In this document: piece by piece, positions 4,471 through 63,800 of the stretch
How positions within the stretch are numbered: the first letter of the stretch is position 1
How the letters are laid out: every line of letters starts with the position of its first letter
Source: Octopus sinensis
Taxonomy: Eukaryota
Assembly (NCBI RefSeq): GCF_006345805.1
Contig: NC_043026.1
Span: 11,697,579-11,761,578, forward strand
Length of the DNA: 64,000 nucleotides
Direction of reading: 5' to 3'
Program-made: the position numbers and the translations under genes
The notes under the pieces: model-generated
What the model was told of the DNA's origin: nothing
What the model saw: only the letters and a program-made list of their open reading frames with translations
The model's database searches: none

Positions 4471-5366
4471 TCAGAGGCTGACAGAAAATCACAAATGTTG
4501 AATATTTCTCTTTATAGCATAAATGTGTTCATGGGGAGAAGAATATTGGGAAACATCAATACATGCGTGAACGAGAAAGTAACAACGAGGGTAGCTCTGG
4601 AATGTGCTAGAAAGAATAGCCAAATCTCCGTCAAATTACACTTTTTCCTTTCTTTACAATCTTTTTTTTTTTTTCTATCGAAAAGTCTCCTCATATGGAC
4701 TTTTAAGAACAAAAATCGGTCTGGAGGGTGTGAAATTAAATTAACTATGTAGTCTTTGTGATCAGAAACTTCTTCCCTGTACACCGAGAAAAAAGTTTTC
4801 CTCAAATTCCTACGCTGTTTGAAAAGGTATTTGTATAAACTTTCATTAAAAGATATCCCTTCTCCTGAAAGTTGAGGGAAAAATCGGATCGTGTGAATTT
4901 CCCGAAAACCACCTCCCTCATTCTTTTACCCAAATTCGTTTTAGATCTTTCCACACCAAGTAAAAAAAAAACAAGTAGCCTTGTTCTTTTTTCTTTGATG
5001 ACCGGGAACTTAAAGCAATATTAAACCAATATTTTTCGGTAAATTTCGAAACTTTCAGTATTAAAATTTACCTTATTTTCTCCCAGCCACAGTTAAAAAC
5101 ATTTTGAAAATCCGTAATCTTAGAATATTGGCGAGGTCATCACTTGGAACTATCCGACAGCGATTCATAAGAGTTAAGTAAAAACATCAAATAGCTAGAG
5201 AGGCTGAATCAAAAGAATACAATAGCTTTAAACAGATAAGATGAATACGAAGCACTAACTCGAGCTGATGCCCATAAACTGTATCTATGGAATGACGGTT
5301 CGTGATGTGTTATGAAGAATCGGATCGCAAAATAAACGGTAAGTAGACTAAAATTATGATGTAGTG

Positions 5367-5382
5367 GGCCCTGAAAAGGGCC
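5367..5382 (-). terminator. Histone 3' stem-loop of H2A
   Basis: Minus strand GGCCCTTTTCAGGGCC, 33 nt after the H2A stop. Confidence 0.95.
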
Positions 5383-5415
5383 GTTGATGCTGAAGGTAGA
5401 CTCCACAGAAAGCGC

Positions 5416-5793
5416 TTACTTGGAAGCCTTCTGGGTCTTCTTGGGGAGAAGAACAGCTTGGATGTTGGGAAGAACACCACCTTGGGCGATGGTCACTCCG
5501 GACAAAAGTTTGTTCAACTCCTCGTCGTTACGGATGGCCAACTGCAAATGACGGGGAATAATTCTGGATTTCTTGTTGTCTCTGGCAGCATTTCCTGCCA
5601 ATTCCAACACTTCGGCAGCCAAATATTCCATCACAGCAGCCAAGTAGACTGGAGCTCCGGCACCAACACGTTGGGCATAGTTTCCCTTGCGGAGAAGACG
5701 GTGGATACGACCGACAGGGAACTGAAGTCCAGCACGGGATGAACGGGTCTTGCTCTTTCCCTTCACTTTACCTCCTTTACCACGTCCAGACAT
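5416..5793 (-). CDS. H2A: Histone H2A (canonical, replication-dependent)
   Basis: [50 protein letters not shown]...[12 protein letters not shown]; ATG at 5793; intronless; stem-loop downstream. Confidence 0.99.
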
Positions 5794-6044
5794 TTTCAAA
5801 GTTCGATACTAGTTTGTAACAGGCGAATTAAAAATTATATAGAGGTTTTCGCCTTTAAATACTGCTTAATCGGCTCCAGCAGTCGAGAAGCAGATGAAAA
5901 ATAAGCGGGCTTTTGTCACGTGACATAGTTGTCAAATTCAACCAATGAAAATGAACGGCGCCGATTTGCAAAAACTGTTCATCTGCTGAGCCTACTTGAC
6001 AGCTATAAATAGGGTAGCTGCAGAGTTAACAGAAGAGTGACATC
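5794..6044. promoter_or_regulatory. Bidirectional H2A/H2B promoter
   Basis: TATA-like TATTTAAA (minus, ~5854) and TATAAATA (~6005); palindrome TGTCACGTGACA 5914-5925; CCAAT ~5942; ATTTGCAA ~5964; dyad AGCAGATGAA 5889-5898 / TTCATCTGCT 5978-5987. Confidence 0.8.
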
Positions 6045-6422
6045 ATGCCACCAGCACCAGCTACCGCTTCGAAAGGAGCCAAGAAGGCTTCCAAGGCTAA
6101 AACTTCACGTCCCGCAGGAGACAAGAAGCGCAAGAAGAAGAGGAAGGAAAGTTATTCCATCTACATCTACAAAGTAATGAAACAAGTCCACCCCGACACT
6201 GGTATTTCCAGCAAAGCTATGTCCATCATGAACAGTTTCGTCAACGATTTGTTCGAAAGAATAGCTTCTGAATCCAGCCGTTTGGCCCACTACAACAAAC
6301 GTTCAACCATCAGTAGCCGTGAGGTGCAGACTGCTGTCCGTCTGCTTCTCCCTGGGGAGTTGGCCAAGCACGCCGTCTCTGAAGGTACCAAGGCTGTTAC
6401 CAAATACACCAGCAGCAAGTAA
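6045..6422 (+). CDS. H2B: Histone H2B (canonical)
   Basis: [14 protein letters not shown]...[33 protein letters not shown]...[10 protein letters not shown]. Confidence 0.99.
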
Positions 6423-6443
6423 ATCTTGGTCTCTCGAAAAAAC

Positions 6444-6459
6444 GGTCCTTTTAAGGGCC
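6444..6459 (+). terminator. Histone 3' stem-loop of H2B
   Basis: GGTCCTTTTAAGGGCC preceded by AAAAC. Confidence 0.93.
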
Positions 6460-8682
6460 ATCTATATTTTCGTGATTGTAAACTATCGATTTTCTATAGA
6501 TCTGCGATTTTAGTTCGTTATTCACCATGTACGAGTCTATAAATGTCACCATTCTATTCTGATCGTGTGTGGTGTGAACAGCAAGCCATCTCGCCTCTTC
6601 AATATGCTTCATCCAAAATGCTTGAATTTCAGCTTCCTTTTTAAGAAATTTTTTTTATCCCTTTCCGTGAGCCTCTCGGCTCTTTGCGTAAGGCATATCT
6701 TAATTTTAGGTCGCAATATCTGACATGGATGAGACAGAATCAAGCTCGTCGGGCGAGATGTTTTAAAGGGTCGTGGGTACGCGTAAGTGCTACCTCGGTT
6801 TCGCACAGGACAACATTTATGTTAGAGGTAGCTGCAAAATAAATTTGAATGTTTATTTTTAATCTCCGTATTTTTCCCACGTAGATTGGAAAAAGGTTCG
6901 AAAACAGTTTCTATAAAGGTTTGAGACAGTTTCCACTTTAATTTAATATGAATTACTTTGTCAAATTACTGAGGGGCATCTTAGCTGAAAGGTGACTAGA
7001 TTGGTTAGATATTTCCGGTGTATTAGCCGCTATTTGTTTCTATCTTCATGTTTTTGATAATGTTATTAAATCTGATAGACTAATATTGAAGCCATTTCGA
7101 AGCAACAACAAAAGAGCTAGCTGCGAACTCTTAGCTCTATAGGGACACATACAAGAACAAGCACGCACCACGCACACAATCCCATTAGCTTCTTCCATTT
7201 CAACAACTGTCACCAAGAGATCCGGAGTGAATTGTGGAGTTGTCATGGAAATTAGTCGTGTTTGTTTTGGTTTTACTCTTACATGTTGCAGTCATTTATG
7301 ATGGAGCACCGCCTTTATTCGAGCAAATCGACCCCAGGACTTATTTGTAAACCTACTTATTGCCGAACCATGGCACCTGTTCTTTCAACTTCATTTGTCT
7401 CTTTTTGTTTGTTCTTATTCAATTTCACTTTCATTATAACTCCATTGTAAATAACCCATCCGATTTCATTGTAAAAAGTTCCATTTTTTTTACCCCAAAT
7501 CATTGTATTGTCCCCATCTGTGTTAATCCTTATGGATAATAAAGAAATACGATATAACTCGACAAGGCCAAAATAAACACTCGGCTGTTTCTGTGACAAC
7601 TCGACAATTCGCTTTGGATATCTTCGTGACCTGTGTGCGTGCGTGCTTGTCTGTTTGTGTTTTCGATTCTGTTTCCTGCTTGGAAATTTTCGGGTTTCAC
7701 ATACATGAAGCAGGTAAGGACAAATATGCAAGGCTTTTTGCTGGCATAGTTTCGTTATATCTATTTCACAACACATTACATAAATACAGAACAAGGTCAC
7801 AGCGGGTGTCACGAAGATATCCGAAATGAATTGTCGAGTTGTCATGGAAACAGGTGAGTGTTTGTTTTGGGCCCGAACCGCTAAGTTACAGGGACGTAAA
7901 CACACCAGTATCGGTTGCTAAGGCTATGTTGGGGCAAACATACATATATGCGACTGCGGAGATTCCGAATTGGCAGAAAAATATCAGCATTTCATAATTT
8001 TAATCCTCACCTCCCAATTTTACACATTTTTTCAGAATTTTCTTTGCGGAATGCGTGGAAAGATACGGAGATTATTCTTCAAAAATGAAATTTGGTAACA
8101 TTTCAAAAAGACAATATCCATCCCCTCCTTAAAATGGACGTGAAAAGTATCTAAAACTCGACATGCTAGAAACAGCAGCTAAACAACGAATCACGTCTTT
8201 AAAATTTTAATTAACCCCGCTCCCATGTTTTTGTGGAAAGGGGGAAAAATTAAAATTTGAAAACGTTTTGGAGGTTATCAGAATCTTAAATTTTTATGTA
8301 TGCTCCAAACGACGAGCTAGAAACAACAGCCAAATCGAAGATCCACTTACTAAATACAAATTTCCAAAAACGAAAAAAATTAAAATGTCATTTTGTGTGT
8401 GCAATGTAAAAGTTAGACTTTTTGAAAAGTCTAACTTTTACATCTTAATTCCAAAACACCCACAACCACATGTTCACTTTTTGTCACTGAAACTTTTTTA
8501 CAAACATATCCTACGTATTTCGCCAAAAAATAAAAGTTCCAGTGGAAAATTAGGGTGGGGAAATTAAAATTTTGGAATGGCGACCCTTTTGCAGATTCGG
8601 AATGTCTGCAGTCGAAAAGGAATTAGTATAAAGATCTTAACGCTGAGTGTTAACTGTGTGCAGAACAATTTCTTTCGCTTTA

Positions 8683-9058
8683 TTACTCTTTTACTTGTTT
8701 CAGTCATTTGACTGCGGCCATGCTGGAGCACCGCCTTTTAGTCGAGCAAATCGACCCCGGGACTTATTCTTTGTAAGCCCCAGTACTTATTCTATCGTTC
8801 TCTTTTGCCGAATCGCTAAGTGACGGGGACGTAAACACACCAGCATCGGTTGTCAAGCAATGCTAGGGGGACAAACAGACATATATATGTGTATACGACA
8901 GTCTTCTTTCAGTTTACGTCTACCAAATCCACTCACAAGGCATTGGTCGGCCCGGGACTATAGCAGGAGACACTTGCCCAAGATGCCACGCAGTGGAACT
9001 GAACCCGGAACCAAGTGGTTGTTTAGCAAGCTACTTACCACACAGCCACTCCGGCGCC
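8683..9058 (-). mobile_element. SINE family A
   Basis: Reverse complement of the 4061-4470 element. Confidence 0.9.
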
Positions 9059-9264
9059 TGTTTATAACTAATTTCGACTTGCATGATCTCTTAAGGTAAA
9101 CAATGCCAAAATTTTAAATTCAAGTGGGAAAGGGGTGAAATTTGAAGTGCTGTTTTCCTTTCTGCATATTCGTAATCTCCGACATCTAAAACGTAAGTAT
9201 CCGAAAAATACACTTTTCAAGGAGGTGCGATATTAAAAAGAAAATGTCCGGTGTACACAAAGTA

Positions 9265-9340
9265 ACTTTGGAAACAAACTTCGAGGCCCTGAATAGGGCT
9301 AGTGGCTTCATTAATTTCATTTAAGCTCTCACCGCGAATG
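9265..9340 (-). pseudogene. Relic of a histone H3 3' end (last codons, stop and degenerate stem-loop)
   Basis: Minus strand ATTCGCGGTGAGAGCTTAA (IRGERA* with a 2-nt loss), then AGCCCTATTCAGGGCC at 9285-9300; parallels 9890-9980. Confidence 0.7.
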
Positions 9341-9907
9341 GCTAAGAATATTTATTGTTCCTAAATGAGCGAGCAGTCCGCCATAAAATAAAATATTTTT
9401 AAATGGGTTTTCTACAAATAAAAACCATTCAGATCGGATGTGGAAGCGCACACATCACAATTTAGTCTATTTTGCAGACGTTATGCACCAGTCAACTTGT
9501 TTTCCTTAAACTACGAAGAGAGATGGAACCTAATCAAACGGACAATTCGTTCCGAAATCTAAATATCATAAGACTGAAACAAACGATCATCGCGGTTTAT
9601 TTGTGCTGCAAGTTCCGTATAGATACAAATACAAAAAACAAACGAGCATCGGGAAAACAAAACCGTGCCGGACATACTATCACCGAAATTGCCGAGCCTT
9701 ATTTAAAATTACACTCAGAGGAATGAATAAGTTTAATTTAGAATTACACTTGGCGGAACGAATAAGTCCAATGCTTAAATCGCCATCCCCAGCCTCAGGA
9801 AAAGAACAATATATCGATCTTATTTCGAATAAACAATTCACGATATACGAGAACACGAAACATACCACTATCTTAAGGGTTAGCAAAACTTTACGAAAAA
9901 ATTTAGA

Positions 9908-9923
9908 GGCCCTGAAAAGGGCC
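9908..9923 (-). terminator. Histone 3' stem-loop of H3
   Basis: Minus strand GGCCCTTTTCAGGGCC. Confidence 0.95.
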
Positions 9924-9957
9924 GTTGGGATAAAGCATTAGCTTCATTATTTTCAAC

Positions 9958-10933
<976 letters not shown>

Positions 10934-10981
10934 ACTGGTGAAGTTTTTCTAACTTCGAGGTCGTGAGTAGCGACTAAACCC

Positions 10982-10997
10982 GGCCCTTTTCAGGGCC
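10982..10997 (+). terminator. Histone 3' stem-loop of H4
   Basis: GGCCCTTTTCAGGGCC. Confidence 0.95.
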
Positions 10998-11203
10998 ACT
11001 CATATCTTAGTGTAAGCCAACTCGCCTCTTCAATATGCTTCATCCAAAATGTTTAAATTTCGGCTTACTTTTTATCCCTTTCAGTGAGCCTCTCGGCTCA
11101 TTACGTAAGGCATTGTATTGTCCCCATCTATGTGAACCCTTTTTGTTCTTGTTCAATTTCATTGTGAATAATCCATTCTATTTCATTGTAAGTATTTCCA
11201 TTT

Positions 11204-20659: not shown

Positions 20660-20895
20660 TACCTATTTCTTTATTACCCACAAGGGCCTAAACACAGAGG
20701 GGACAAACAAGGACAGACATAGGTATTAAGTCGATTATATCGACTCCAGTGCGTAACTGGTACTTAATTTATCGACCCCGAAAGGATGAAAGGCAAAGTC
20801 GACCTCGGCGGAATTTGAACTCAGAACGTAACGGCAGACGAAATACGGCTACGCATTTCACCCGGCGCGCTAACGTTTCTGCCAGCTCGCCGCGT
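20660..20895 (-). mobile_element. tRNA-derived SINE family B (Meta-domain-like)
   Basis: Minus strand GAGTTCAAATTCCGCCGAGGTCGACTTTGCCTTTCATCCTTTCGGGGTCGATAAATTAAGTACC, resembling the MetaSINE central domain; tail TGTGGGTAATAAAGAAATAG. Confidence 0.8.
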
Positions 20896-29752: not shown

Positions 29753-30072
29753 TAATTTACAAGATAAGGCAAAAGAAAAATTCTAATGCCGAAAAAAAGA
29801 CAATAATTGTCAATAAATCATTATAATTTATGTGTCTCGAAACAAACCGATAGAAATCTCTAAAAAATTTCAGCGTATTTGCCGCTGAAGAGGGGAAAAT
29901 TTCTTACGAGTTAACCCCGAAATTGGACCAATACGGTAATAACAAATCTTTTTGAGATTTCAATCGGTTTGTTTCAAGACGCATAAATTATAATGGTTTA
30001 TTGACAATTATTGTCTTTTTTTTCGGCATATTTGGCATTAGAATTTTTCTTTTGCCCTTATCTTGTAAATTA
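29753..30072 (+). mobile_element. Penelope-like or retrozyme-like inverted-repeat element inserted in (TA)n
   Basis: Arms 29753-29870 and 29944-30072 are reverse complements; hammerhead in the loop; (TA)n on both sides. Confidence 0.7.
29879..29939 (+). ncRNA. Minimal type I hammerhead ribozyme
   Basis: TTGCCG-CTGAAGA-GGGG..CCCC-GAAA-TTGG A CCAA-TA-CGGTAA: all core nucleotides and stems I-III present; predicted cleavage after A29933. Confidence 0.8.
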
Positions 30073-30168
30073 TTTATAAATTTAACCTTTAAAGGTATTT
30101 TTTGATATGCTGGCCATTGATAAAATTTTTTTCCAGAAAAAAAAAAATTTTATCCTATTTAGTTATAA

Positions 30169-30241
<73 letters not shown>

Positions 30242-30859
30242 TATAATGTTAACACAATGTAAAGGTGTAGTTTACAAATGTGTATGCTTCTGTTATGTAG
30301 ATTTTAGTAAATTAAAATGTTCAGTCGTTAAAGTAAATATTTGTTCCTGCAATTAATCTCTATAGAAATGTTATCAATTTTCTACTATTAAATCTCTGAT
30401 TTTCAATTAACTCTGTATTTTAATCTGATGTTTCTTCATTATTTCAGAATAACAGATGACATTGGCATAACAGAAGAGGAACCTTCAAACCATTCTATCT
30501 TTTAAAGACTGAATGTAAATGTTATATGGAAGAGACAGCTACCACTGTTTCTATGAATTCATTGTAAAATTCCAAAGACATTTTGCTCTGAACTGAGATT
30601 ATCAACAAAATTTCTGCCGTAATCTGGAGTGTATACAAAGTGAGTTTGTGTGCTCTAATTAAACTTGGAGAAATTTTCATAAGAGATTGTAGATAAAGGT
30701 AACATTGAACAGAAATGCAGCAGCAGAAAAAGTTGTAAAGAATAAACAATAGAAATAGAATCAACAAGAAATATATAGAAATATAGAAATATTTTGATTT
30801 GCGAAGGGAAAAGTATTGCAAAAACGTCAAAAACTTAAAATTGATTTTTTCTTGAAGAC

Positions 30860-34679: not shown

Positions 34680-35261
34680 ATACATGCGCACACACACACA
34701 CACACACACATATATATCAATTAGAAAAAAAAACACCTATCAATTCAATAATGAAAAATTAATTTGCACAATCTAGAAAATTGCATATTATAGAAAGATT
34801 AAATATAAGAAAAACATATAACGATGATTAAGTAAAGTGCAAAATAATAAATAAAACGTAAATGCATGGGCGACTGCTGGTCTTCCATAAACAACCTTGC
34901 TTGGACTTGTACCTGAGAGGGTAACTTTCTAGGTGCAATCATGACCGAAGGGGGTCTCAGCATCTATGGCTTACTACTACAATGAGAACGTGTACACACT
35001 TACTCAACAAGAAATTAACTCTCTTAACCTCGTATGCTTTTCCATTTACTAATTGTACAAATGAACCCATTATGGTTTTGACTACATACTAAGTTACGAT
35101 GAATTAATTTTTCTTTACAATTTCGATCAATGTTCTTCTGTCATCTTACTCATCTGCAACATCAACACCCGTTGCAATCGCTAACTGCCGACTCCAACAA
35201 TCACCACAAATTACCGTTACAATCTTACAATTGGTAATCATTGACTCCACCTAACAATACC

Positions 35262-35765
35262 AATTTCTTTATTACCCTCAAGGGGCTAAACATAGAGGGG
35301 ACTGACAAACGGGTTAAGTCGATTACATCGACCCCAGTGCGAAACTGGTACTTAATTTATGCTATTGAAACGATGTAATATATATTTTGCCATCTTAAGG
35401 TGGAGAGCTGGTAGAAAGGTTAGCACATCGGGCGAAATCCTTAGCGGTATTTCGTCTGCCGTTACGTTGTGAGTTCAAATTCCGCCGAATTCGACTTTAC
35501 CTTTCATCCTTTCGGGGTCGATAAATTAAGTACCAGTTACGCACTGGAGTCGATGTAATCGACTTAATACCTATGTCTGTCCTTGTTTGTCCCTTCTATG
35601 TTTAGCCCCTTGTGGGTAATAAAGAAATAGGTACTTAATTTATCGACCCCGAAAGGATGAAAGGTAATTTCGACCTCGGCGGAATTTCAACTCAGAACGT
35701 AACGGCAGACGAAATACGGCTACGCATTTCACCCGGCGTGCTAACGATTCTGCCAGCTCGCCGCC
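35262..35765. mobile_element. Nested family B SINEs (plus copy inside a minus copy)
   Basis: Minus tail 35262-35360, plus copy ~35397-35630, minus head 35630-35765; GGTACTTAATTTAT duplicated at both junctions. Confidence 0.75.
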
Positions 35766-36311: not shown

Positions 36312-37083
36312 GTAAGTATAATTAAACAATGAAAATATTTCGTCTTTTAATATTGTAGTCATTTGTTTTTGACGACTCGGTTCTTTGTGTCTGTCCTACA
36401 TTTTATACATGAAATTTGCCTACTTTGTGCGTGATTTGGCTGCTATTTCTGGCTACGAAACCTATTTTGTTGACTGTCCATCGTTGCCAACATTGTTCTG
36501 TGATTTATTGGTCGAATTAATCTTCCCTGCACGCCTTCCTACATCTTAGCACCACTACTATCTATCCCACTACTATAACAGCTCAAAATATTTGAACTAA
36601 TTTGTTTATCATATTTCATATGGTTGTCCATTGTGATTTCCATCAAACTATTACATTTTTTTTTTTCGTTTTTGGATTTGGTTTGCAAGATTCTTTATAT
36701 GAGTTGGTGTGTTGAAGCATATTCTGTTGTGTCTGGGGAGAGTCATTTTCTTTTTGTGCCTTATAATATAACACACTCACCGGGAAAATTTCCACTTTTC
36801 TTTCTTATTTTGATCTCCTGGGGCTAAAAGCATCAGTAACACCCCACCCCCAGTGGCTAGCTACATTCAGATGGCTAGTACACTTTACGTTGTCGAGCGG
36901 TTACTGTTTATATCTCGTTCAGAGATTTATTAATGCTTTCTTATTTTTATTTTCCTAAAATTTTCGTTGCGTCTTGCAACCTTTTCAAATATTTTGACTC
37001 TGTCCGTTATTTACGATGCGTTCCTGTTTGTTTGTTTGTGTGTGTGTGTGCCTATGCATGTACGTATGTATGTATGTGTGTGA

Positions 37084-44139: not shown

Positions 44140-45200
44140 CTGGTTATAGATCAGAAAGATAGGGTTCGAGTATACAGGGGTGCTAGAAAGAAATTAGATA
44201 ACATTATATGTAATGATACCAGTGGTACCTGCCTTAAATATAGAAACAAAGACTGGAATAGGATACAAAGAACTTGTGACAAAGCAAATAGGGCAAACAC
44301 ATGGTATAAAACTGACCAATATCAAGGAGTGATGTTTGTAGAGGCCACAGCCCATGGAGAACTAGCTCGTAGATTTAGAAAATCCCTGAAGGAGACCAAA
44401 TTCAACATTAAGATTGTTGAAAAACCGGGGAACTCCGTCAGATCACAACTATTATTTCTTTACTACCCACAAGGGGCTGAACACAGAGGGAACAAACAAG
44501 GACAGACAGACGGATTAAGTCGATTACATCGACCCCAGTGCACAACTGGTAATTAATTTATCTTTAAGGCGGCGAGCTGGCAGAAACGTTAGCACGCTGG
44601 GCAAAATGCGTAGCCGTATTTCGTCTGCCGTTACGTTCCGAGTTCAAATTCCGCCGAGGTCGACTTTGCCTTTCATCCTTTCGGGGTCGATAAATTAAGT
44701 ACCAGTTATGCACTGGGGTCGATGTAATCGACTTAATCTGTTTGTCCCCTCTGTGTTTAGCCCCTTGTTGGTAGTAAAGAAATAGGTACTTAATTTATCA
44801 ACCCCGAAAGGATGAAAGGCAAAGTCGACCTCAGATCACAACTATGTAGGATGCACCCCTTTCAGAATACCATATGCACCAATGATAACTGCATGGTATG
44901 TAGGGTTAGCCCTGGCATTAACTGTGGAACTCGAAATGTAGTTTACAGCATAAGATGCATAGAAGGTGCTTGTAGAGACATGAACATGACGTATATAGGG
45001 GAGACATCTAGGAGCATTGCGGAACAACCAAATGAACATCGGAGACAATATGACGACAAAAAGCAGTCCTCCATACTCTACCAACATGGAGGCAACTTGG
45101 GTCAACTTGACATCCGCATCTTATCCAAGCACTCAGACAAATATGGAAGTATGTCCTTATAAATGAAACTTCTCCAATACTAAATAGGAAATATAGGTAG
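44140..45200 (+). mobile_element. Penelope-like element remnant (RT thumb/linker plus GIY-YIG endonuclease), Naiad-like
   Basis: WYK...VMFVEATAHGELARRFRK...KIVEKPGNSVRSQL|CRMHPF..CTNDNCMVC...NVVYSIRC...C...YIGETSRS....EH...S.LYQH; shifted C-terminus INETSPILNRK; split by a SINE. Confidence 0.8.
44453..44830. mobile_element. Nested family B SINEs inserted in the Penelope-like ORF
   Basis: 15-bp TSD TCAGATCACAACTAT at 44438-44452 and 44831-44845; inner plus copy flanked by GGTA(A/C)TTAATTTATC. Confidence 0.85.
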
Positions 45201-46771: not shown

Positions 46772-48904
46772 TTAATTTGGCTTCTCGCTTGTATGAATAC
46801 ATTTATGTGATGTTAAGCTACTTCTTACAGCGAATGATTTACTGCAGATATTGCACTGATATGGTTTCTCTCCTGTATGAATACGTCTATGTATTGTTAA
46901 GCTAGAACTTACAGAGAATGATTTACCGCAGATATCACACCGATATGGCTTCTCACCTGTGTGACTACGCTTGTGTGTCATTAAACTAGTACTTTGCGAG
47001 AATGACTTGCCACAAACATCACACTGAAATGGCTTCTTTCCTGTGTGAATACGCTTGTGTATTATTAAAATACTACTGTCAGAGAATGACTTCTTACAAA
47101 CATCACACTGAAATGGCTTCTCTCCTGTATGAGTACGCTTATGAGTAGTCAAATTGCTTTTTCGAGAGAAAGATTTATTGCAGATATCACATTTATGTGG
47201 CTTCTCTCCTGTATGAGTACGTTTGTGTGTACTTAATGCACTACTTCTAGAGAATGATCTACCACAGGTATTACAGTGATATGGCTTCTCTCCTGTATGA
47301 ATACGTTTGTGTAATGCTACATCAAGAAGTTGAGAAAATGATCTGCTACAAATATCACATTTATATGGCTTCTCTCCTGAATGAGTACGTTTGTGTTTTA
47401 CTAAGCTACTACTTACAGAGAATGATTTGCTGCAGATATCACACTGATATGGTTTCTCTCCTGTATGAATATGCTTATGTGATTTTAAGCTACAATTTAC
47501 CGAGAATGATTTACCGCAGATATCACACCGATATGGCTTCTCACCTGTGTGACTACGCCGGTGTATCATCAAATTACTATTTTGAGAGTATGACTTCCCA
47601 CAAATATCACACTGGTATGGCTTCTTTCCTGTATGAATATGCTTGTGAATTATTAAACTACGACTGTCAGAGAATGACTTCTTACAAACATCACACTTAA
47701 ATGGCTTCTCTCCTGTACGATTACATTTGTGTACTCTTAAACCACTGCTCTGAGAGAAAGATTTATTGCAGATATCACACTGGTATGGCTTCTCCCCTGT
47801 ATGAGTACGTTTGTGCGCACTTAAACCATTACTTCCAGCAAATGATTTACCGCAGATATTACAGCGATATGGCTTCTCACCTGTATGAATACGTTTGTGC
47901 CTAGTTAAATGCATATTTTGAAGAAATGATTTACCACAAATATCACAAATGTATGGCCTCTCCCCTGTGTGAACACGCTCATGTTTATTTAAGGTATACT
48001 TTCGATAGAATGATTTACCACATTTATCACAGTGATAAAGTTTCTCTCCTGTATGAATACATTTGTGTGTTCGTAAGTTAGAACCTGCAGTGAATGTTTT
48101 ACCACAGATATTACACTGATATGGTTTTTCTCCTGTATGTGAACGCTTGTGTATAGTTAAGTATTCATTTCGAGAAAATGATTTACTACAGACATCACAC
48201 TGATATGGCTTCTCTCCCGTATGAATCCGTTTGTGAGATTTTAAAGAATAATTTTTTGCGTAAGATTTACCACAAATGTCACAATGAAATGGTCTCTCTC
48301 CTGTATGACTACGTTTATGTACAGTTAGGCATCCATTCTCAATGAATGATTTACCACAGACATCACAATGATATGGTCTTTCTCCTGTATGAGTCCGCTT
48401 GTGTTTAGTTAAATCATTATTTTGAGGGAATGATTTACCACAGATATTACAGCAATAAGGTTTCTCCCCTGCATGAACTCGCTTGTGATATGTGAAAGCA
48501 TCACATCGAGAGAATGATTTACCACAAATATCACAGTGATATGGCTTCTCTCCTGTATGTATACGTCGGTGATTTGTAAATGCACTATTGCCAGAGAATG
48601 ATTTACCACAGATATCACAATGATATGGCTTCTCTCCTGTATGAATACGATTGTGTTTAGTTAGGTGTCCACTCTGAGTGAATGATTTGCCACAGATATC
48701 ACATCTATATGGCTTCTCTCCTGTATGAAGTCGTCGGTGAGATTTTAAACTACTACGTACAGAGAATGATTTCCCACAGATATTGCAGCAAATTTGCTTC
48801 TTCCTTGCATCAATACGCTTATGTTCTATTAGGTTACCATTCTTAGAGAATGGCTTTTCACAGATATTGAATTCAGATGATGGTTTTCCTGTATCTTTAG
48901 ACAT
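46772..48904 (-). CDS. Poly-C2H2 zinc-finger protein ZF5 (710 aa, ~24 fingers)
   Basis: [19 protein letters not shown] then tandem C2H2 fingers; an in-frame TAA removes the last ancestral finger; acceptor at 49295-49294. Confidence 0.92.
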   Translation of the reverse strand: MSKDTGKPSSEFNICEKPFSKNGNLIEHKRIDARKKQICCNICGKSFSVRSSLKSHRRLHTGEKPYRCDICGKSFTQSGHLTKHNRIHTGEKPYHCDICGKSFSGNSAFTNHRRIHTGEKPYHCDICGKSFSRCDAFTYHKRVHAGEKPYCCNICGKSFPQNNDLTKHKRTHTGERPYHCDVCGKSFIENGCLTVHKRSHTGERPFHCDICGKSYAKNYSLKSHKRIHTGEKPYQCDVCSKSFSRNEYLTIHKRSHTGEKPYQCNICGKTFTAGSNLRTHKCIHTGEKLYHCDKCGKSFYRKYTLNKHERVHTGERPYICDICGKSFLQNMHLTRHKRIHTGEKPYRCNICGKSFAGSNGLSAHKRTHTGEKPYQCDICNKSFSQSSGLRVHKCNRTGEKPFKCDVCKKSFSDSRSLIIHKHIHTGKKPYQCDICGKSYSQNSNLMIHRRSHTGEKPYRCDICGKSFSVNCSLKSHKHIHTGEKPYQCDICSKSFSVSSSLVKHKRTHSGEKPYKCDICSRSFSQLLDVALHKRIHTGEKPYHCNTCGRSFSRSSALSTHKRTHTGEKPHKCDICNKSFSRKSNLTTHKRTHTGEKPFQCDVCKKSFSDSSILIIHKRIHTGKKPFQCDVCGKSFSQSTSLMTHKRSHTGEKPYRCDICGKSFSVSSSLTIHRRIHTGEKPYQCNICSKSFAVRSSLTSHKCIHTSEKPN

Positions 48905-50211
48905 GTCTTCAAGAAAAAAATCAATTTCTCAAGTTTTTGCATTATTTTTCTCCTCAAATCAAAATATTTCTATATATTTCTTGTTGATTCCGTTCCTATT
49001 ATTTATTCTTTGCCATTTTTTCAGCTACGGTATTACTGTCCAACGTTACCTTTATCTAAAAACTTATGAAAATTTATCCCAAGTTTAATTAGAGCACACA
49101 AAATCACTTTGTATACACTCCAGATTATGACACAGAAATTTTGCTAATAATCTCAGTTCAGAGCAAAATGTCATTGGAATTTTACAATGAATTCATAGAA
49201 ACGGTGCTCTTCCATATAACATTTACATTCAGTCTTTAAATGATGGTATGCTTTGAAGGTACATCTTCTGTTAGTCCAATATCATCTATGATTCTGAAAC
49301 AATGAAGAAACATCAGATTAAAATACAGAGGCTAATTGAAAATCAGAGATTTAATAGTAGAAAATTTATACCATTTCTATAGAGATTAATCGCAGGAACA
49401 AATATTTACTTTAACGACTGAACATTTTAATTTACTAAAAATTTACGTAACAGAAGCATACACATTTGTAAACTAGAGCTACACCTTCACATTGTGCTAA
49501 AATATTATATATATTAAACTATAAAATAGTGGACGATAACACTCCGTCTCTCCAAAATTATAAGTGGACATGGTTATTCAGCCCCAGGTCAGCACAAGTG
49601 CTCTTTATGTATATATATATATAGGAGCAAAACGTCCCCCATCCTATGGACGGTGCTGAGTTGTCAAACATTTCATCCTAACGTTCACAAAGCAACATGT
49701 CTGACCGTCCCATAGGCCTCCTCTTTGAGAAACAGATTTAACCTAAATTTGAGACACCTGCAAAAGAGGAGATAAAGATAGACCCTTTTTTTTTCTTAGT
49801 GAAAATCGTGCGGGTGTTAATCTGTAATTTTACCGACGTTTTTTCTATTCCAAAGAAAAACGATTTTATTCACACAAATACGCAACCGAATAGTTTAAAG
49901 TAACCAGTAATGATAAGGCTGTTGACTGGGAGAACAGAAAATTACAAAAGACTGAGTCTAGTGTAATACAAAATATTTCTCAAACTAAACCATACAACAA
50001 ACTAACGTTGCAACGATGGACAGGCAACAAAATAGGCTTCGTAGATACAATAATTTCATTATATTATATATTATAAATAGCAGCCAAATCACGCACAAAG
50101 TAGGCAAATTTCATGTATAAAATGTAGGACAGACACAAAGAATCAATTCGTCAAACACAAATGACTACAATATTAAAAGACGAAATATTTTCATTGTTTA
50201 ATTATACTTAC

Positions 50212-50450
50212 AGAAATGTTGTTATAACTCTGTGTGTGGTAGTTGTGAAATATACTTTAAGTGAGTAGAACTGTTGATAAAAGGTATTATAACAGTGTTT
50301 GTGGTGGACAAGAAATGTTCAAATAAAAGTGCGTGGTGCTTGATTAAAAGGAATTCATTAAACAATGAAAAACTTTGAAGCGATCAATTAACGGGAATGC
50401 AGTTCAGTGCGCATGCGTATGTTGTATTACGTCATCCAGCGCGCATGCGT
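50212..50450 (-). promoter_or_regulatory. Putative promoter and non-coding exon 1 of ZF5 (duplicated NRF1-like motif)
   Basis: TGCGCATGCG 50408-50417 and GCGCATGCG 50441-50449; minus-strand donor GTAAGT at 50211. Confidence 0.65.
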
Positions 50451-50536: not shown

Positions 50537-51135
50537 GTTACGTTCTGAGTTCAAATTCCACCGAAATCGACTTTGCCTTTCATCCTTTCGGGTTCGATAA
50601 ATTAAGTACCTATTTCTTTATTACCCACAAGGGGTTGAACACAGAGGCGACAAACAAGGACAGACATAGGTATTAAGTCGATTACATCGACTCCAGTGCG
50701 TAACTGGTACTTTAATTTATCGACCCCGAAAGGATGAAAGGTAAATTCGACCTCGGCGGAATTTGAACTCTCAATGTAATGGCAGACGAAATACCTATTT
50801 CTTTATGACCCACAAGGGGCTAAACATAGAGGGGACAAACATGGACAGACATAGGTATTAAGTCGATTACATCGCCCTCAGTGCGTAACTGGTACTTAAT
50901 TTATCGACCCCGAAAGGATGAAAGGCAAAGTCGACCTCGGCGGAATTTGAACTCAGAACGTAACGGCAGACGACATATCGCTAAGCATTTCGCCCGGCGT
51001 GCGAACGTTTCTGCTAGCTCGCCGATAAATTAAGTACCAGTTACGCACTGGAGTCGATGTGATCGACTTAAAACCTTTGTCTGTCCTTGTTTGTCCCCTC
51101 TATGTTTAGCCTTTCGTGGGCAATAAAGATATAAG
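50537..51135. mobile_element. Cluster of nested family B SINEs
   Basis: Plus copy split at GATAAATTAAGTACC (~50596-50610 and ~51024-51038) by two minus copies. Confidence 0.8.
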
Positions 51136-51468: not shown

Positions 51469-52076
51469 GGCGTAGGAGTGGCTGTGTGGTAAGTAGCTTG
51501 TTTACCAACCACATGGTCCCGGGTTCAGTCCCACTGCCTGGCACCTTGGGCAAGTGTCTTCTACTATAGCCTCGGGCCGACCAAAGCCTTGTGAGTGGAT
51601 TTGGTAGACGGAAACTGAAAGAAGCCTGTCGTGTATATATATATATATATACTACAAAATTAGAAAATGGAGAAACATACTTAAATCAATAAAACATCAA
51701 CCATCAGATGATACCCAATCAATACTTTATTACACCATTACATAACAGTAAAGGCATTATATAAAATATATTGTAAATATAAATAGACAAGGAAATAGAA
51801 ATATAAAATATAAAATATAATATGTAATTATATCATATCTGACAGCTGTTTCGGCAGTAAGGGCAATCATGCCTCATTTAACCTATAAGCCATAAAGGCA
51901 GGTATAAATGAGACATTAACAAGGATGCCCCACGGCCTCTTCAGAGAATTTAATTTATTATAATTGTGAAAAAATTTTTTTATCCATATACATATAAATA
52001 TAAAAATATAAAAATGTAAAATATAAAAACTTGTGCATAAACTCCATATTGCTACACACACACACACACATACACA

Positions 52077-52161
<85 letters not shown>

Positions 52162-52205
52162 TGTGTGTGTTTGTCCCCCTAGCATTGCTTGACAACCGAT
52201 GCTGG
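51469..52205 (+). mobile_element. SINE family A with a ~400-bp Penelope-like insert in its (TA)n
   Basis: Head 51469-51632, foreign AT-rich block ~51651-52053, tail resumes at ~52160. Confidence 0.8.
51838..51947 (-). ncRNA. Minimal type I hammerhead ribozyme with a long stem II
   Basis: Minus strand TCT-CTGAAGA-GGC...(GTGGGGCA/TGCCCTTAC, TGTCTCATTTA/TAAATGAGGCA)...GCC-GAA-ACAGCTGT-C-AGA; palindromic stem III; GUC cleavage site. Confidence 0.75.
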
Positions 52206-52467
52206 TATACTAGCCATCTCAATATGGCTAACCACTAAGGGTGGGTGTTACTGTAGCTTTTAGCCCCAGGAGATCATCGTCTCCAGCTGGCTTTGGCCCT
52301 TACGGTATTTACAAAGGGAGGTCATACCTCTCTCGTCAACCTAAGTGATACGCACGGACTGCACAGAAAGTGTGCCTAAAGCCAGCTGGAGACGATGATC
52401 TCCTCGGGCTAAAAGCTACAGTAACACCCACCCTTAGTGGTTAGCCATATTGAGATGGCTAGTATAC
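52205..52467. repeat. Near-perfect inverted repeat with 90-bp arms at the 5' side of a retroposon 3' end
   Basis: 52205-52294 versus 52378-52467; continues to a GAGATTTATTAC tail; related copy at 36812-36932. Confidence 0.85.
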
Positions 52468-55694: not shown

Positions 55695-57584
55695 TCACCG
55701 ACTACGCCTGTGTACTACTACAGAGAATGACTTCTTACAAATATCACACTTATATGGCTTCTTTCCTGTATGAATATACTTGTGTGTTTTTAAACTACTA
55801 ACTTGAGAGAATGATTTACCACAAATATCACACTGGTATGGCTTCTCTCCTGTATGAATACGTTTATGAGCAGTCAAACTTCCATTCTGAGAGAAAGATT
55901 TATTGCAGATGTCACACTGGTATGGCTTCTCTCCTGTATGAATACGTTTGTGTGTAGTTAATGCACCACTTCCAGCGAATGATTTACCACAGATATTACA
56001 GTGATATGGTTTCTCTCCTGTGTGAATACGTTTGTGTGTAGTTAACGCACCACTTACAGCGAATGATTTACCACAGATATTACAGTGATATGGTTTCTCT
56101 CCTGTGTGAATACGTTTGTGTACTCTTAAATCATGATGTTGAGAAAATGATCTGCTACGAATATCACATTTATATGGTTTCTCTCCTGAATGAATACGTT
56201 TATGTGATGTTAAGCTACAACGTACGGAGAATGATTTACCACAAATATCACACCGATATGGTTTCTCTCCTGTATGAATACGTTTATGCACCGCTAAGTT
56301 ACTACTTAAAGAGAATGATTTACCACAGATATCACACCGATATGGCTTCTCACCTGTGTGACTACGCTTGTGTGTCATTACACTACTACTGTTAAAAAAT
56401 GACTTCTTACAAATATCACACTGAAACGGCTTCTTTCCTGTATGAATACGCTTGTGTGCACTTAAACTACTAATTTGAGAGAATGACTTCTTACAAATAT
56501 CACACTGGTATGGCTTCTCTCCTGTATGAATACGTTTGTGTATACTTAATGCACTACTTGCAGTGAATGATTTACCACAGATAATACACTGATATGGCTT
56601 CTCTCCTGTATGAATATATTTATGTACTTTTAAGGCATTATTTCCACAGAATGATTTACCACAGATATCACAGTTATATGGCTTCTCTCTTGTGTAAATA
56701 CATTTATGTACTTTTAAGGAATTACTTCCACAGAATGATTTACCACAGATATTACAGTGATATGGTTTCTCTCCTGTATGAATACATTTGTGTTTTCGTA
56801 AGTTAGAACCTGCAGTGAATGTTTTACCACAGATATTACACTGATATGGTTTTTCTCCTGTATGTAGACGTTTGTGTATAGTGAAGCATTCAAGTCGAGA
56901 AAATGATTTACTACAGACATCACACTGATATGGCTTCTCTCCTGTATGAATCAGTTTGTGTTTAGTTAAAGAATTATTTCTGGTGAAAGATATACCACAA
57001 ATGTCACAATGAAATGGTTTCTCTCCTGTATGAATACGTTTATGTACAGTTAGGCTTCCATTCGCAGAGAATGATTTACCACAGATATTACAGTGATATG
57101 GCTTCTCACCTGTATGTATACGTTGGTGAGATTTAAATGGAGTGATGCCAGAGTATGATTTACCACAGATATTACAGCAATACGGAATCTCTCCTGTATG
57201 AATTCGCTTGTGGAAATATAAAGCACTCCCTCCAGAGAATGATTTACCACAGATATCACAATGATATGGCTTCTCTCCTGTATGAGTACGTCTGTGTGTA
57301 GTTAGGTTTCCATTCTGAGAGAAGGATTTGCCACAGATATCACATCTATATGGCTTCTCTCCCGTATGAACTCGTTGGTGAGATGTTAAGTTAGCACGTA
57401 TAGAGAATGATTTCCCACAGATATTGCAGCAATATTGTTTCTTCCCTGTATGACTACGCCTATGTTTAATCAGGTTACGTTTCTGGGAGAACAACTTTTC
57501 ACAGCTATTAAATTCACTTGATGGTTTTCCTGTATTTTTAGGCATGTCTTTTCTCAATCTCGCGAGTTTTTGACGTTTTTGCAT
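55695..57584 (-). CDS. Poly-C2H2 zinc-finger protein ZF6 (~630 aa, ~20 fingers), C-terminus disrupted by deletions
   Basis: ATG at 57584 (MQKRQKL; MPKN at 57545); tandem C2H2 fingers; scrambled finger remnants at 55565-55720; acceptor at 57622-57621. Confidence 0.85.
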
Positions 57585-57837
57585 TATTTTTCTTCTCAAA
57601 AAAAAAAACAACAAAATATTCTGAAATAATGAAGAAACATCAGATTAAAATACAGAGGTTAATTGAAAATCAGAGATTTAATAGTTGAAAATTTATAACA
57701 TTTCTATAGAAATGAATTGCACGAACAAATATTTACTTTAACGACTGAACATTTTAATTTACTAAAATTTACGTAACAGAAGCATACACATTTGTAAACT
57801 AGAGCTACACCTTCACATTGTGCTAAAATATATATTA

Positions 57838-63208: not shown

Positions 63209-63751
63209 GGCGCAGGAGTGGCTGTGTGGTAAGTAGCTTGTTTACCAACCACATGGTTCCGGGTTCAGTCCCACTGCGTGGTACCTTGGGCAAGTGTTTT
63301 CTACTATTGCCTCGGGCCGACCAAAGCCTTGCGAGTGGATTTGGTAGACGGAAACTGAAAGATGCCCGTCGCATATATATATATATAAATATATATAGGC
63401 GCAGGAGTGGCTGTGTGGTAAGTAGCTTGTTTATCAACCACATGGTTCCGGGTTCAGTCCCACTGCGTGGTACCTTGGGCAAGTGTTTTCTACTATTGCC
63501 TCGGGCCGACCAAAGCCTTGCGAGTGGATTTGGTAGACGGAAACTGAAAGATGCCCGTCGCATATATATATATATAAATATATATAGGCGCAGGAGTGGC
63601 TGTGTGGTAAGTAGCTTGTTTACCAACCACATGGTTCCGGGTTCAGTCCCACTGCGTGGTACCTTGGACAAGTGTCTTCTACTATAGCCTCGGGCCGACC
63701 AAAGCCTTGCGAGTGGATTTGGTAGACGGAAACTGAAAGAAGCCCTTCGTA

Positions 63752-63800
<49 letters not shown>

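Follow-up and report, generated by a model that had tools for sequence, protein, structure and literature searches.

An insert within a SINE of Octopus sinensis is probably the 5'-truncated 3' end (pseudo-LTR) of a Penelope-like element (PLE) that targets (TA)n and resembles the Hydra clade. Within it lies a complete type I hammerhead core, for which cleavage is predicted only in the dimer. Hammerheads in PLEs, palindromic stems III and (TA)n targeting have all been published already, which makes the element type ordinary; the new part is the 33-bp stem II of the ribozyme. The insert lies in a 64,000-nt stretch of DNA (the window) in which histone genes and a C2H2 zinc-finger cluster are interspersed with many repeats. 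The SINE and this cluster are in keeping with an octopus genome. The features at this locus, in window coordinates, are the following.

51470–51632, plus strand: 5' half of the host SINE, 90–96% identical to nine other copies in the window
51634–51651, either strand: (TA)9, target remnant at the inferred 3' end of the insert, read from the sequence
51652–51840, minus strand: U-rich 189-nt segment after the predicted cut, holding an AATAAA at 51731
51838–51840, minus strand: 3' strand of stem I, AGA, read from the sequence
51841, minus strand: C17 of the GUC site, with the predicted cut between 51841 and 51840, from sequence and numbering
51842–51849, minus strand: stem III, the perfect 8-nt palindrome ACAGCUGU, 0.0 kcal/mol alone and −11.1 kcal/mol as a duplex
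51850–51852, minus strand: core G12-A13-A14, read from the sequence
51853–51937, minus strand: stem II, 85 nt with 33 pairs predicted by folding (29 Watson-Crick, 4 G-U), closed by G10.1-C11.1
51938–51944, minus strand: core C3 to A9, CUGAAGA, read from the sequence
51945–51947, minus strand: 5' strand of stem I, UCU, read from the sequence
51945–52053, minus strand: U-rich 109-nt segment before the core, with a weak, low-complexity likeness to the post-cut segment
52054–52119, minus strand: (TG)33 on the ribozyme strand, which is (CA)33 on the plus strand; inferred 5' junction, read from the sequence
52120–52157, either strand: (TA)19, target remnant at the inferred 5' end, read from the sequence
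52158–52206, plus strand: the host SINE resumes and then breaks off, by comparison within the window
52205–52467, either strand: inverted-repeat (MITE-like) element that ends the SINE, with a partial relative at 36811–36938

Read on the minus strand, UCU-CUGAAGA-[85 nt, GGC...GCC]-GAA-ACAGCUGU-C-AGA forms a full type I hammerhead core, with C3 at 51944, G12 at 51852 and C17 at 51841 in the established numbering of hammerhead positions. All of the core elements are present (C3-U4-G5-A6-N7-G8-A9, G12-A13-A14, A15.1-U16.1 and H17), three helices meet at the junction, and the open ends lie in stem I, which is the type I layout. The helices are predicted to contain 3 bp in stem I, 33 bp in stem II and, in stem III, 2 bp in a single molecule or 8 bp in a dimer. 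Cleavage is predicted after GUC, between 51841 and 51840. A preliminary description of this DNA had reported the same minus-strand motif (CUGAAGA-GGC...GCC-GAA-palindrome-C), and both its cut site and its stem I of about 3 bp match the positions that we read.

A descriptor allowing a stem II of up to 200 nt found exactly two motifs in the window, the core at 51944 on the minus strand and another at 29885 on the plus strand. The descriptor was composed after the motif had been seen, but the margin over chance is nonetheless wide: 20,000 dinucleotide shuffles of the insert, searched on both strands, gave no motif with a palindrome of at least 8 nt and two relaxed motifs. Simulated windows (n = 150) yielded 32 relaxed matches, one of them with a palindrome of at least 6 nt and none with a dense long stem II, against two matches in the one real window. 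We concluded that the hammerhead motif is far beyond chance. No hammerhead family was found among the 89 Rfam matches in the window or the six in a narrow scan of the motif; this test is insensitive, because the narrow scan also missed the short-stem hammerhead at 29885.

The palindrome ACAGCUGU has no stable fold alone and is predicted to form an 8-bp duplex between two molecules. Folding energies, which exclude core tertiary contacts and concentration, placed the active monomer at −37.6 kcal/mol in a 161-nt context, compared with −44.8 kcal/mol for the best monomer fold, so that the active shape made up ~3e-6 of the ensemble. A strand-swapped active dimer reached −91.1 kcal/mol, lower than two active monomers (−75.2) or two best monomers (−89.6), and lay 8 kcal/mol above the best dimer fold (−99.3). 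In these models a register-shifted helix, UCUGA/UCAGA, can sequester the core, and a small hairpin in the segment 51652–51840 competes with a longer stem I. The active shape is thus predicted to be far better as a dimer than as a monomer, with cleavage only when two copies pair. Dimer-type cleavage had been anticipated in the preliminary description, and it is supported both by these energies and by what is reported of PLE hammerheads, which cleave weakly in vitro and need dimers (PMC4209133; review PMC6765202). The hammerhead of an Anolis PLE required the element's protein in vitro; insertion in vitro did not depend on cleavage, and none of the reads had its end at the site (PMC11167929). Our modelled energies agree with the available literature on low activity, a need for dimers and assistance by protein.

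The insert comprises 402 nt of unique sequence (51652–52053) and the (CA)33 tract (52054–52119). An AT-rich insert of ~400 bp in a SINE (TA)n had been described before; this stands, with the correction that the (CA)33 tract comes in addition. The SINE lies on the plus strand, and the ribozyme is antisense to it; at 158 of 163 positions (97%) the SINE agrees with the majority of eight siblings, so we regard the insertion as young. The (CA)33 tract runs opposite to the SINE's own TG run, and because CA in this orientation is absent from the ten other SINE junctions listed in the window, the tract was probably brought in by the insertion. Its source could be the element itself, the TG run of the target, copied in inverted orientation at the 5' junction, or the flank of a donor locus. 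BLAST found no second copy of the insert in the window. Neither terminal inverted repeats nor an inverted 5' copy emerged from alignment of this insert or, microsatellite arms apart, from the 25 longest of 81 inverted pairs. From the cut to the inferred 3' end the distance is 189 nt. The AATAAA reported downstream of the core is present (51731), but another stands just upstream of the core (51959) and the flanks are very AT-rich, so the signal is little informative. As a lone copy at this locus, the hammerhead is probably an inert passenger.

Three other observations concern the insert and the SINEs. The 3' end of the insert (51652–51680, minus strand) resembles a splice acceptor, with a pyrimidine run, CUAAU and UUUUGUAG before the TA run; PLEs retain introns, and the likeness may be due to chance. 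The inverted-repeat element at 52205–52467 (263 bp) replaces the 3' half of the SINE, and its relative at 36811–36938 is shorter. Elsewhere, at 63209–63775, three SINE 5' halves (189 bp, 97% alike) lie in tandem, joined at TA runs.

The insert works like the 3' end of a PLE and likely is one; its best match by anatomy is the Hydra clade, although the clade is not fixed. The hammerhead sits in what would be the 3' pseudo-LTR, on the sense strand (an orientation taken from the ribozyme itself), between U-rich and AU-rich flanks. The PLE consensus likewise has a U-rich 5' flank, a 3-nt stem I, a palindromic stem III and an AU-rich 3' flank (PMC4209133 Fig. S3). In that study (Cervera and de la Pena 2014, PMC4209133), the minimal or small-palindrome hammerheads of metazoan PLEs share with the insert the CUGANGA/GAAA core, G10.1-C11.1, the 3-bp stem I, the palindromic helix III and the dimer logic; in most cases their motif stands alone in a truncated copy. 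Between A9 and G10.1 these hammerheads usually carry one unpaired nucleotide, which the insert lacks. Because no ORF and no second copy were found, we only infer PLE membership; the missing ORF is compatible with it, since a 5'-truncated copy would lack one.

Resemblance to the Hydra clade extends to the target, the palindromic stem III, the short stem I and the position near the 3' end. The insert is flanked by (TA)9 and (TA)19, and (TA)n is the target in 26 of 27 Hydra families, including Hydra-1_Obim of Octopus bimaculoides (PMC8557442 File S1), although Naiad and Neptune elements share this trait. In members such as Penelope-1_NV, Penelope-2_SK, Hydra-1_Amil and Hydra-1_Obim, a type I hammerhead likewise stands near the 3' end, with palindromic stem III arms of 4 bp, a short stem I and AT-rich flanks. 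Arms of ACAG/CUGU occur in 4 of 25 tabulated Hydra families, stem I starts from 3 bp, and several cores in the same table have no extra nucleotide after A9 (PMC8557442 File S2), as is the case for the hammerhead at 51944. The distance of 189 nt from cut to end falls within a range of ~35–350 nt that we derived by hand for about a dozen families from the tables of PMC8557442, and it exceeds most of the Hydra values. In contrast, the Hydra stem II measures 3–7 bp with loops of 3–10 nt in the 26 rows compared, whereas that of the insert spans 85 nt and 33 bp. The Hydra stem III has 9–10 nt versus a loopless 8 nt here, the insert has no attached ORF, and comparison by eye showed no sequence likeness between it and Hydra-1_Obim.

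Other PLEs match less well. The Octopus elements Naiad_Ovul and Naiad_Obim share the (TA)n target, but their 3' ends, compared by eye, show no likeness to the insert, and Naiads are described as long inactive in cephalopods (PMC8557442), unlike the young insertion at our locus. Naiad_Ovul is flagged there as 'HHR_half_core', meaning that its core halves are further apart than the descriptors permit. In the supplement of the same paper, the 3' ends of both Naiads combine a changed first half of the core with a paired stem and GAAAC, ~35 nt apart; this hammerhead-like arrangement is possibly the half core of those authors. The longest stem II regions among the tabulated PLE rows belong to PLE-X1_sMoe and PLE-X1_sTam of spike mosses (~53 nt in sMoe), yet these are long unpaired loops on a stem of at most 9 bp, in elements with an rDNA target and a plant host, compared with a 33-bp rod in the insert. 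An 8-nt loopless palindrome also occurs in PLE-X1_cBra, which is not a Hydra element (PMC8557442). Because of that palindrome, and because Naiad and Neptune also favour microsatellites, the clade is not fixed. In O. vulgaris, 190 PLE families together make up 6.83% of the assembly (PMC13282606), and fragments of them are therefore expected by chance in a 64-kb octopus window.

The preliminary description had proposed that a second PLE or retrozyme family targets (TA)n. The PLE origin and the (TA)n target are upheld, together with the match to Hydra anatomy (PMC8557442), and the tandem retrozyme is not. Nor is the targeting novel, as it has been published for Hydra and Naiad elements with Octopus families included (PMC8557442).

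The other hammerhead in the window belongs to a second, independent insert of the same plan at 29755–30170 on the plus strand. It has C3 at 29885, a 6-bp stem I, a 4-bp stem II, the 11-nt palindrome AUUGG-A-CCAAU and an AUA site, with a predicted cut after 29933, 237 nt from the 3' end. Its odd palindrome, with one central base, matches the Hydra pattern, and the insert carries an inverted 5' copy (29792–29870 vs 29944–30022, 92%) of a kind typical of PLEs. The two inserts had been called unrelated; their alignment scores are indeed at shuffle level. This insert occupies a TA run in a zinc-finger gene (at 30845), within its inferred first intron; the hammerhead lies on the sense strand and so would be transcribed, unlike the one at 51944. 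This location bears on the earlier suggestion that the SINEs supply the target, which holds for one of the two hammerhead inserts; the other is in a short intronic TA run, and TA runs of any origin therefore serve as targets. Only 1 of the 11 listed SINE TA runs carries a hammerhead insert, and the paralogue of the intronic TA run (~49503–49517) is short and empty.

We found no homologue of the insert in the window, in bacterial and archaeal genomes, in phage and plasmid sequences or in translated searches, and consequently there is neither covariation nor a link to a reverse transcriptase or GIY-YIG ORF to draw on. BLAST of 51830–51960 against phage and plasmid sequences gave no match. A pattern scan of bacterial and archaeal genomes returned four loci, none with a similar stem II sequence, and all were rejected; two appear, from their signature, to be ABC-transporter coding sequence, and the two from Pseudomonas have a 2-bp stem I. 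Chance reading frames of the insert used as translated queries gave no candidate homologue; two matches were rejected because their scores were summed from 4–5 tandem weak stretches of 14–17 residues each. Pfam detected no reverse transcriptase or GIY-YIG domain in the 50 ORFs scanned out of 79 long ones (the five zinc-finger ORFs, their overlapping frames and repeat-borne frames were omitted), and no such ORF exists in the insert; the matches in those 50 were to histones, zinc fingers and two weak sub-cutoff entries. Short motif words were absent from the supplement of PMC8557442, which gave only unrelated partial matches, and from those of PMC13282606 and PMC4209133 (file 2). ARAGORN reported no tRNA, and a scan for bacterial promoters and terminators, which is irrelevant to animal DNA, stayed at chance level.

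An unlikely alternative to a truncated PLE end is a non-autonomous, retrozyme-like element, in which a 213-nt unit bounded by self-cleavage was copied into (TA)n by a PLE reverse transcriptase over slightly less than two units. The 109 nt before the core align best with the post-cut sequence on the diagonal (best of 260) that places the 5' end of the insert at the cleavage site, and 3–5 of 500 shuffles reached the local alignment score of these two segments. A length of 213 nt also falls within the 150–450 bp of retrozyme units (PMC7229834), and animal retrozymes have been proposed to be PLE derivatives, often monomers (bioRxiv 10.64898/2026.07.22.740005). However, the two segments are only 57% identical over 70 nt, whereas the host SINE is 97% identical to the majority of its siblings, which rules out that they are units of a single, recent rolling-circle copy. 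The place where the next unit would carry a core has none, and plain (TA)n tracts score equally well (38–41). We thus set the 213-nt register aside: its shuffle p of ~0.002–0.09, depending on the null, is suggestive, but plain (TA)n tracts match too. The in-register likeness of 51945–52053 to 51770–51840 (minus strand) is weak and of low complexity.

Non-LTR retrozymes (Cervera and de la Pena 2020, PMC7229834) are, as described there, short, non-coding, AT-rich elements of invertebrates with a type I hammerhead, and in some families a weak stem III needs dimers, all of which recalls the insert. They differ from it in having tandem units of 150–450 bp with a hammerhead in each, compared with one core and flanks 57% alike. 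The insert has a 3-bp stem I, no evident loop I–loop II geometry, and a microsatellite target instead of a visible target-site duplication. Retrozyme hammerheads of coral and axolotl combine loop contacts with short helices of the canonical kind, although most of the contact nucleotides are missing from those of mussel. The units of a recent tandem copy would resemble each other about as closely as the SINE copies do, and the copy would hold a second core; since an insert younger than its SINE has neither a second core nor a near-identical repeat unit, the tandem retrozyme is unsupported.

We return to the PLE reading and to its one unusual part, stem II. This stem had been given as ~90 nt; it is indeed long, and measures 85 nt (51853–51937). 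It folds as a single rod at −36.4 kcal/mol, with closing pairs at P > 0.97, and none of 2,000 shuffles reached that energy (mean −20.5, SD 3.1), while 8 of 7,209 sampled 85-nt windows folded at −36.4 kcal/mol or lower. The plus strand of the same region reaches only −28.8 kcal/mol. A better predicted fold on the ribozyme strand and the four G-U pairs are as expected of RNA structure. The rod is tiered, with a lower part of ~11–13 bp, an irregular zone, and an upper hairpin of 12+4+3 bp. Loop II is predicted to lie ~33 bp from the core, and its complements to the stem I side are only 5-nt A/U stretches. A 37-codon frame that crosses the cleavage site (51756–51869, minus strand) starts at an AUG within the 3' arm of stem II. 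This frame is short and of low complexity; the ORF of the Anolis PLE likewise begins in stem II.

Published stems II are far shorter in the sources compared. Helix II ranges from 3 to 8 bp in 44 rows of PMC4209133 Fig. S3. The 34 rows compared from PMC8557442 File S2 include none above 9 bp, and their core halves are spaced by no more than ~53 nt; the 33-bp stem is four times the longest helix II (at most 9 bp) among these 78 rows. A 2026 paper counts 6–8 bp as long and 4–5 bp as typical (PMC13725137), and Perreault et al. emphasise short hammerhead stems II (PMC3088659). The descriptor of Craig et al. takes a core-half spacing of 7–17 nt, with half cores flagged at 35–50 nt (PMC8557442), and the 85-nt spacing lies outside both ranges. 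Because stem II is so long, standard descriptors and Rfam miss the motif. Literature on long or extended hammerhead stems II, of which our coverage was partial, contained no natural example of this size, and novelty is unproven.

The rod could instead be incidental. An ordinary PLE hammerhead may have had its loop II lengthened by a small palindromic insertion or fold-back, which may have silenced the ribozyme. We find this account rather improbable. The shortness of published stems II and the tiered structure, with its upper hairpin at the irregular zone, are what it would lead one to see. But we saw no target-site duplication around the upper hairpin, which has no relative in the window, and the lower part alone exceeds every published stem II compared. 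The G-U pairs and strand asymmetry point to shaping at the RNA level, and in so young an insertion there has been little time for a rearrangement confined to this copy.

With its 85 nt, 33 bp and single-stranded flanks, the hairpin matches a Microprocessor substrate in size. It is very improbable that the hairpin is a microRNA or siRNA precursor surrounded by coincidental hammerhead letters, because a core, a palindrome, a cleavage triplet and a stem I are very unlikely to meet by chance precisely at its base; moreover, no Rfam miRNA match covers it, and its words are absent from four supplementary files of PMC9699675, which may omit precursor sequences.

The hammerhead lies between the zinc-finger genes ZF6 (55695–57644) and ZF5 (46772–48928), both on the minus strand, and the preliminary description was correct in placing it on their sense strand ahead of the promoter-like region of ZF5. 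The ZF6 stop lies ~3.8 kb upstream of it, and ~1.4 kb downstream of it is a promoter-like block (~50405–50450) that is common to the paralogues. That the host has co-opted it as an insulator, cutting ZF6 read-through RNA before the ZF5 promoter, nevertheless seems to us highly unlikely, and the proposed read-through function is not sustained: seven AATAAA signals precede the motif after the ZF6 stop, the active monomer is a minute part of the ensemble of this single copy, no other zinc-finger unit in the window has a counterpart of the insert, and the insert sits in a young, broken SINE. The hammerhead probably matters little for the zinc-finger cluster.

Further observations concern the genes and repeats of the window. 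The zinc-finger genes share a plan (49293–50450, minus strand), in which a promoter-like block with a doubled GCGCATGCG and TGACGT, motifs known as NRF1 and CRE, precedes a short first exon without coding sequence; its donor lies near 50211, and the intron runs to an acceptor before 49293, after which comes a single coding exon. In a search with zinc-finger sequence, the best 120 of 7,718 matches were at most 61% identical, and none of these 120 bore a cephalopod name. Just upstream of the ZF5 block, 50537–51134 holds nested direct and inverted copies of a second repeat family, also present near 20660, 27681, 35260–35720, 44450–44830 and 58435. The histone genes H2A, H2B, H3 and H4 lie at 5342–11022, with 3' stem-loop matches of 26–30 bits against an Rfam gathering score of 34.

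If the insert is a PLE end, its history and function can be sketched as follows. The GIY-YIG nuclease of the parent element would have nicked the TA run of the SINE, and its reverse transcriptase would have copied the RNA from the 3' end and stopped at the (TG)n tract, leaving ~470 bp. In tandem transcripts of the parent, the long stem II would fold first and hold CUGAAGA beside GAAA in an otherwise U/A-rich RNA. Two hammerheads would then swap strands to form the 8-bp stem III and two 3-bp stems I, and dimeric cleavage, probably assisted by the element's own protein, would split the tandem RNA into units. Because loop II appears too distant from stem I for the usual contact and offers only 5-nt A/U complements, we infer that stem II pre-organises the junction; it would stand in for the loop I–loop II contact, which this geometry would probably not permit.

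The young insertion and the G-U pairs, as seen in one copy, favour a rod that is family-wide. We suggest, tentatively and with more doubt than confidence, that the insert comes from a recently active PLE family in which all copies have the 33-bp rod, grown under selection, replacing the tertiary contact and offering a handle to the element's protein or to enzymes acting on double-stranded RNA (ADAR, Dicer); since such a rod falls outside published descriptors and Rfam, some PLE lineages scored as ribozyme-less would hide working ribozymes. If the whole family has the rod, genome scans that fix the limits of stem II count too few PLE ribozymes, and the claim that some PLE clades are ribozyme-less is open to direct retest. 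The long-armed hammerhead is also a natural construct with which to ask if, in dimeric hammerheads, loop-loop contacts can be replaced by a long helix II.
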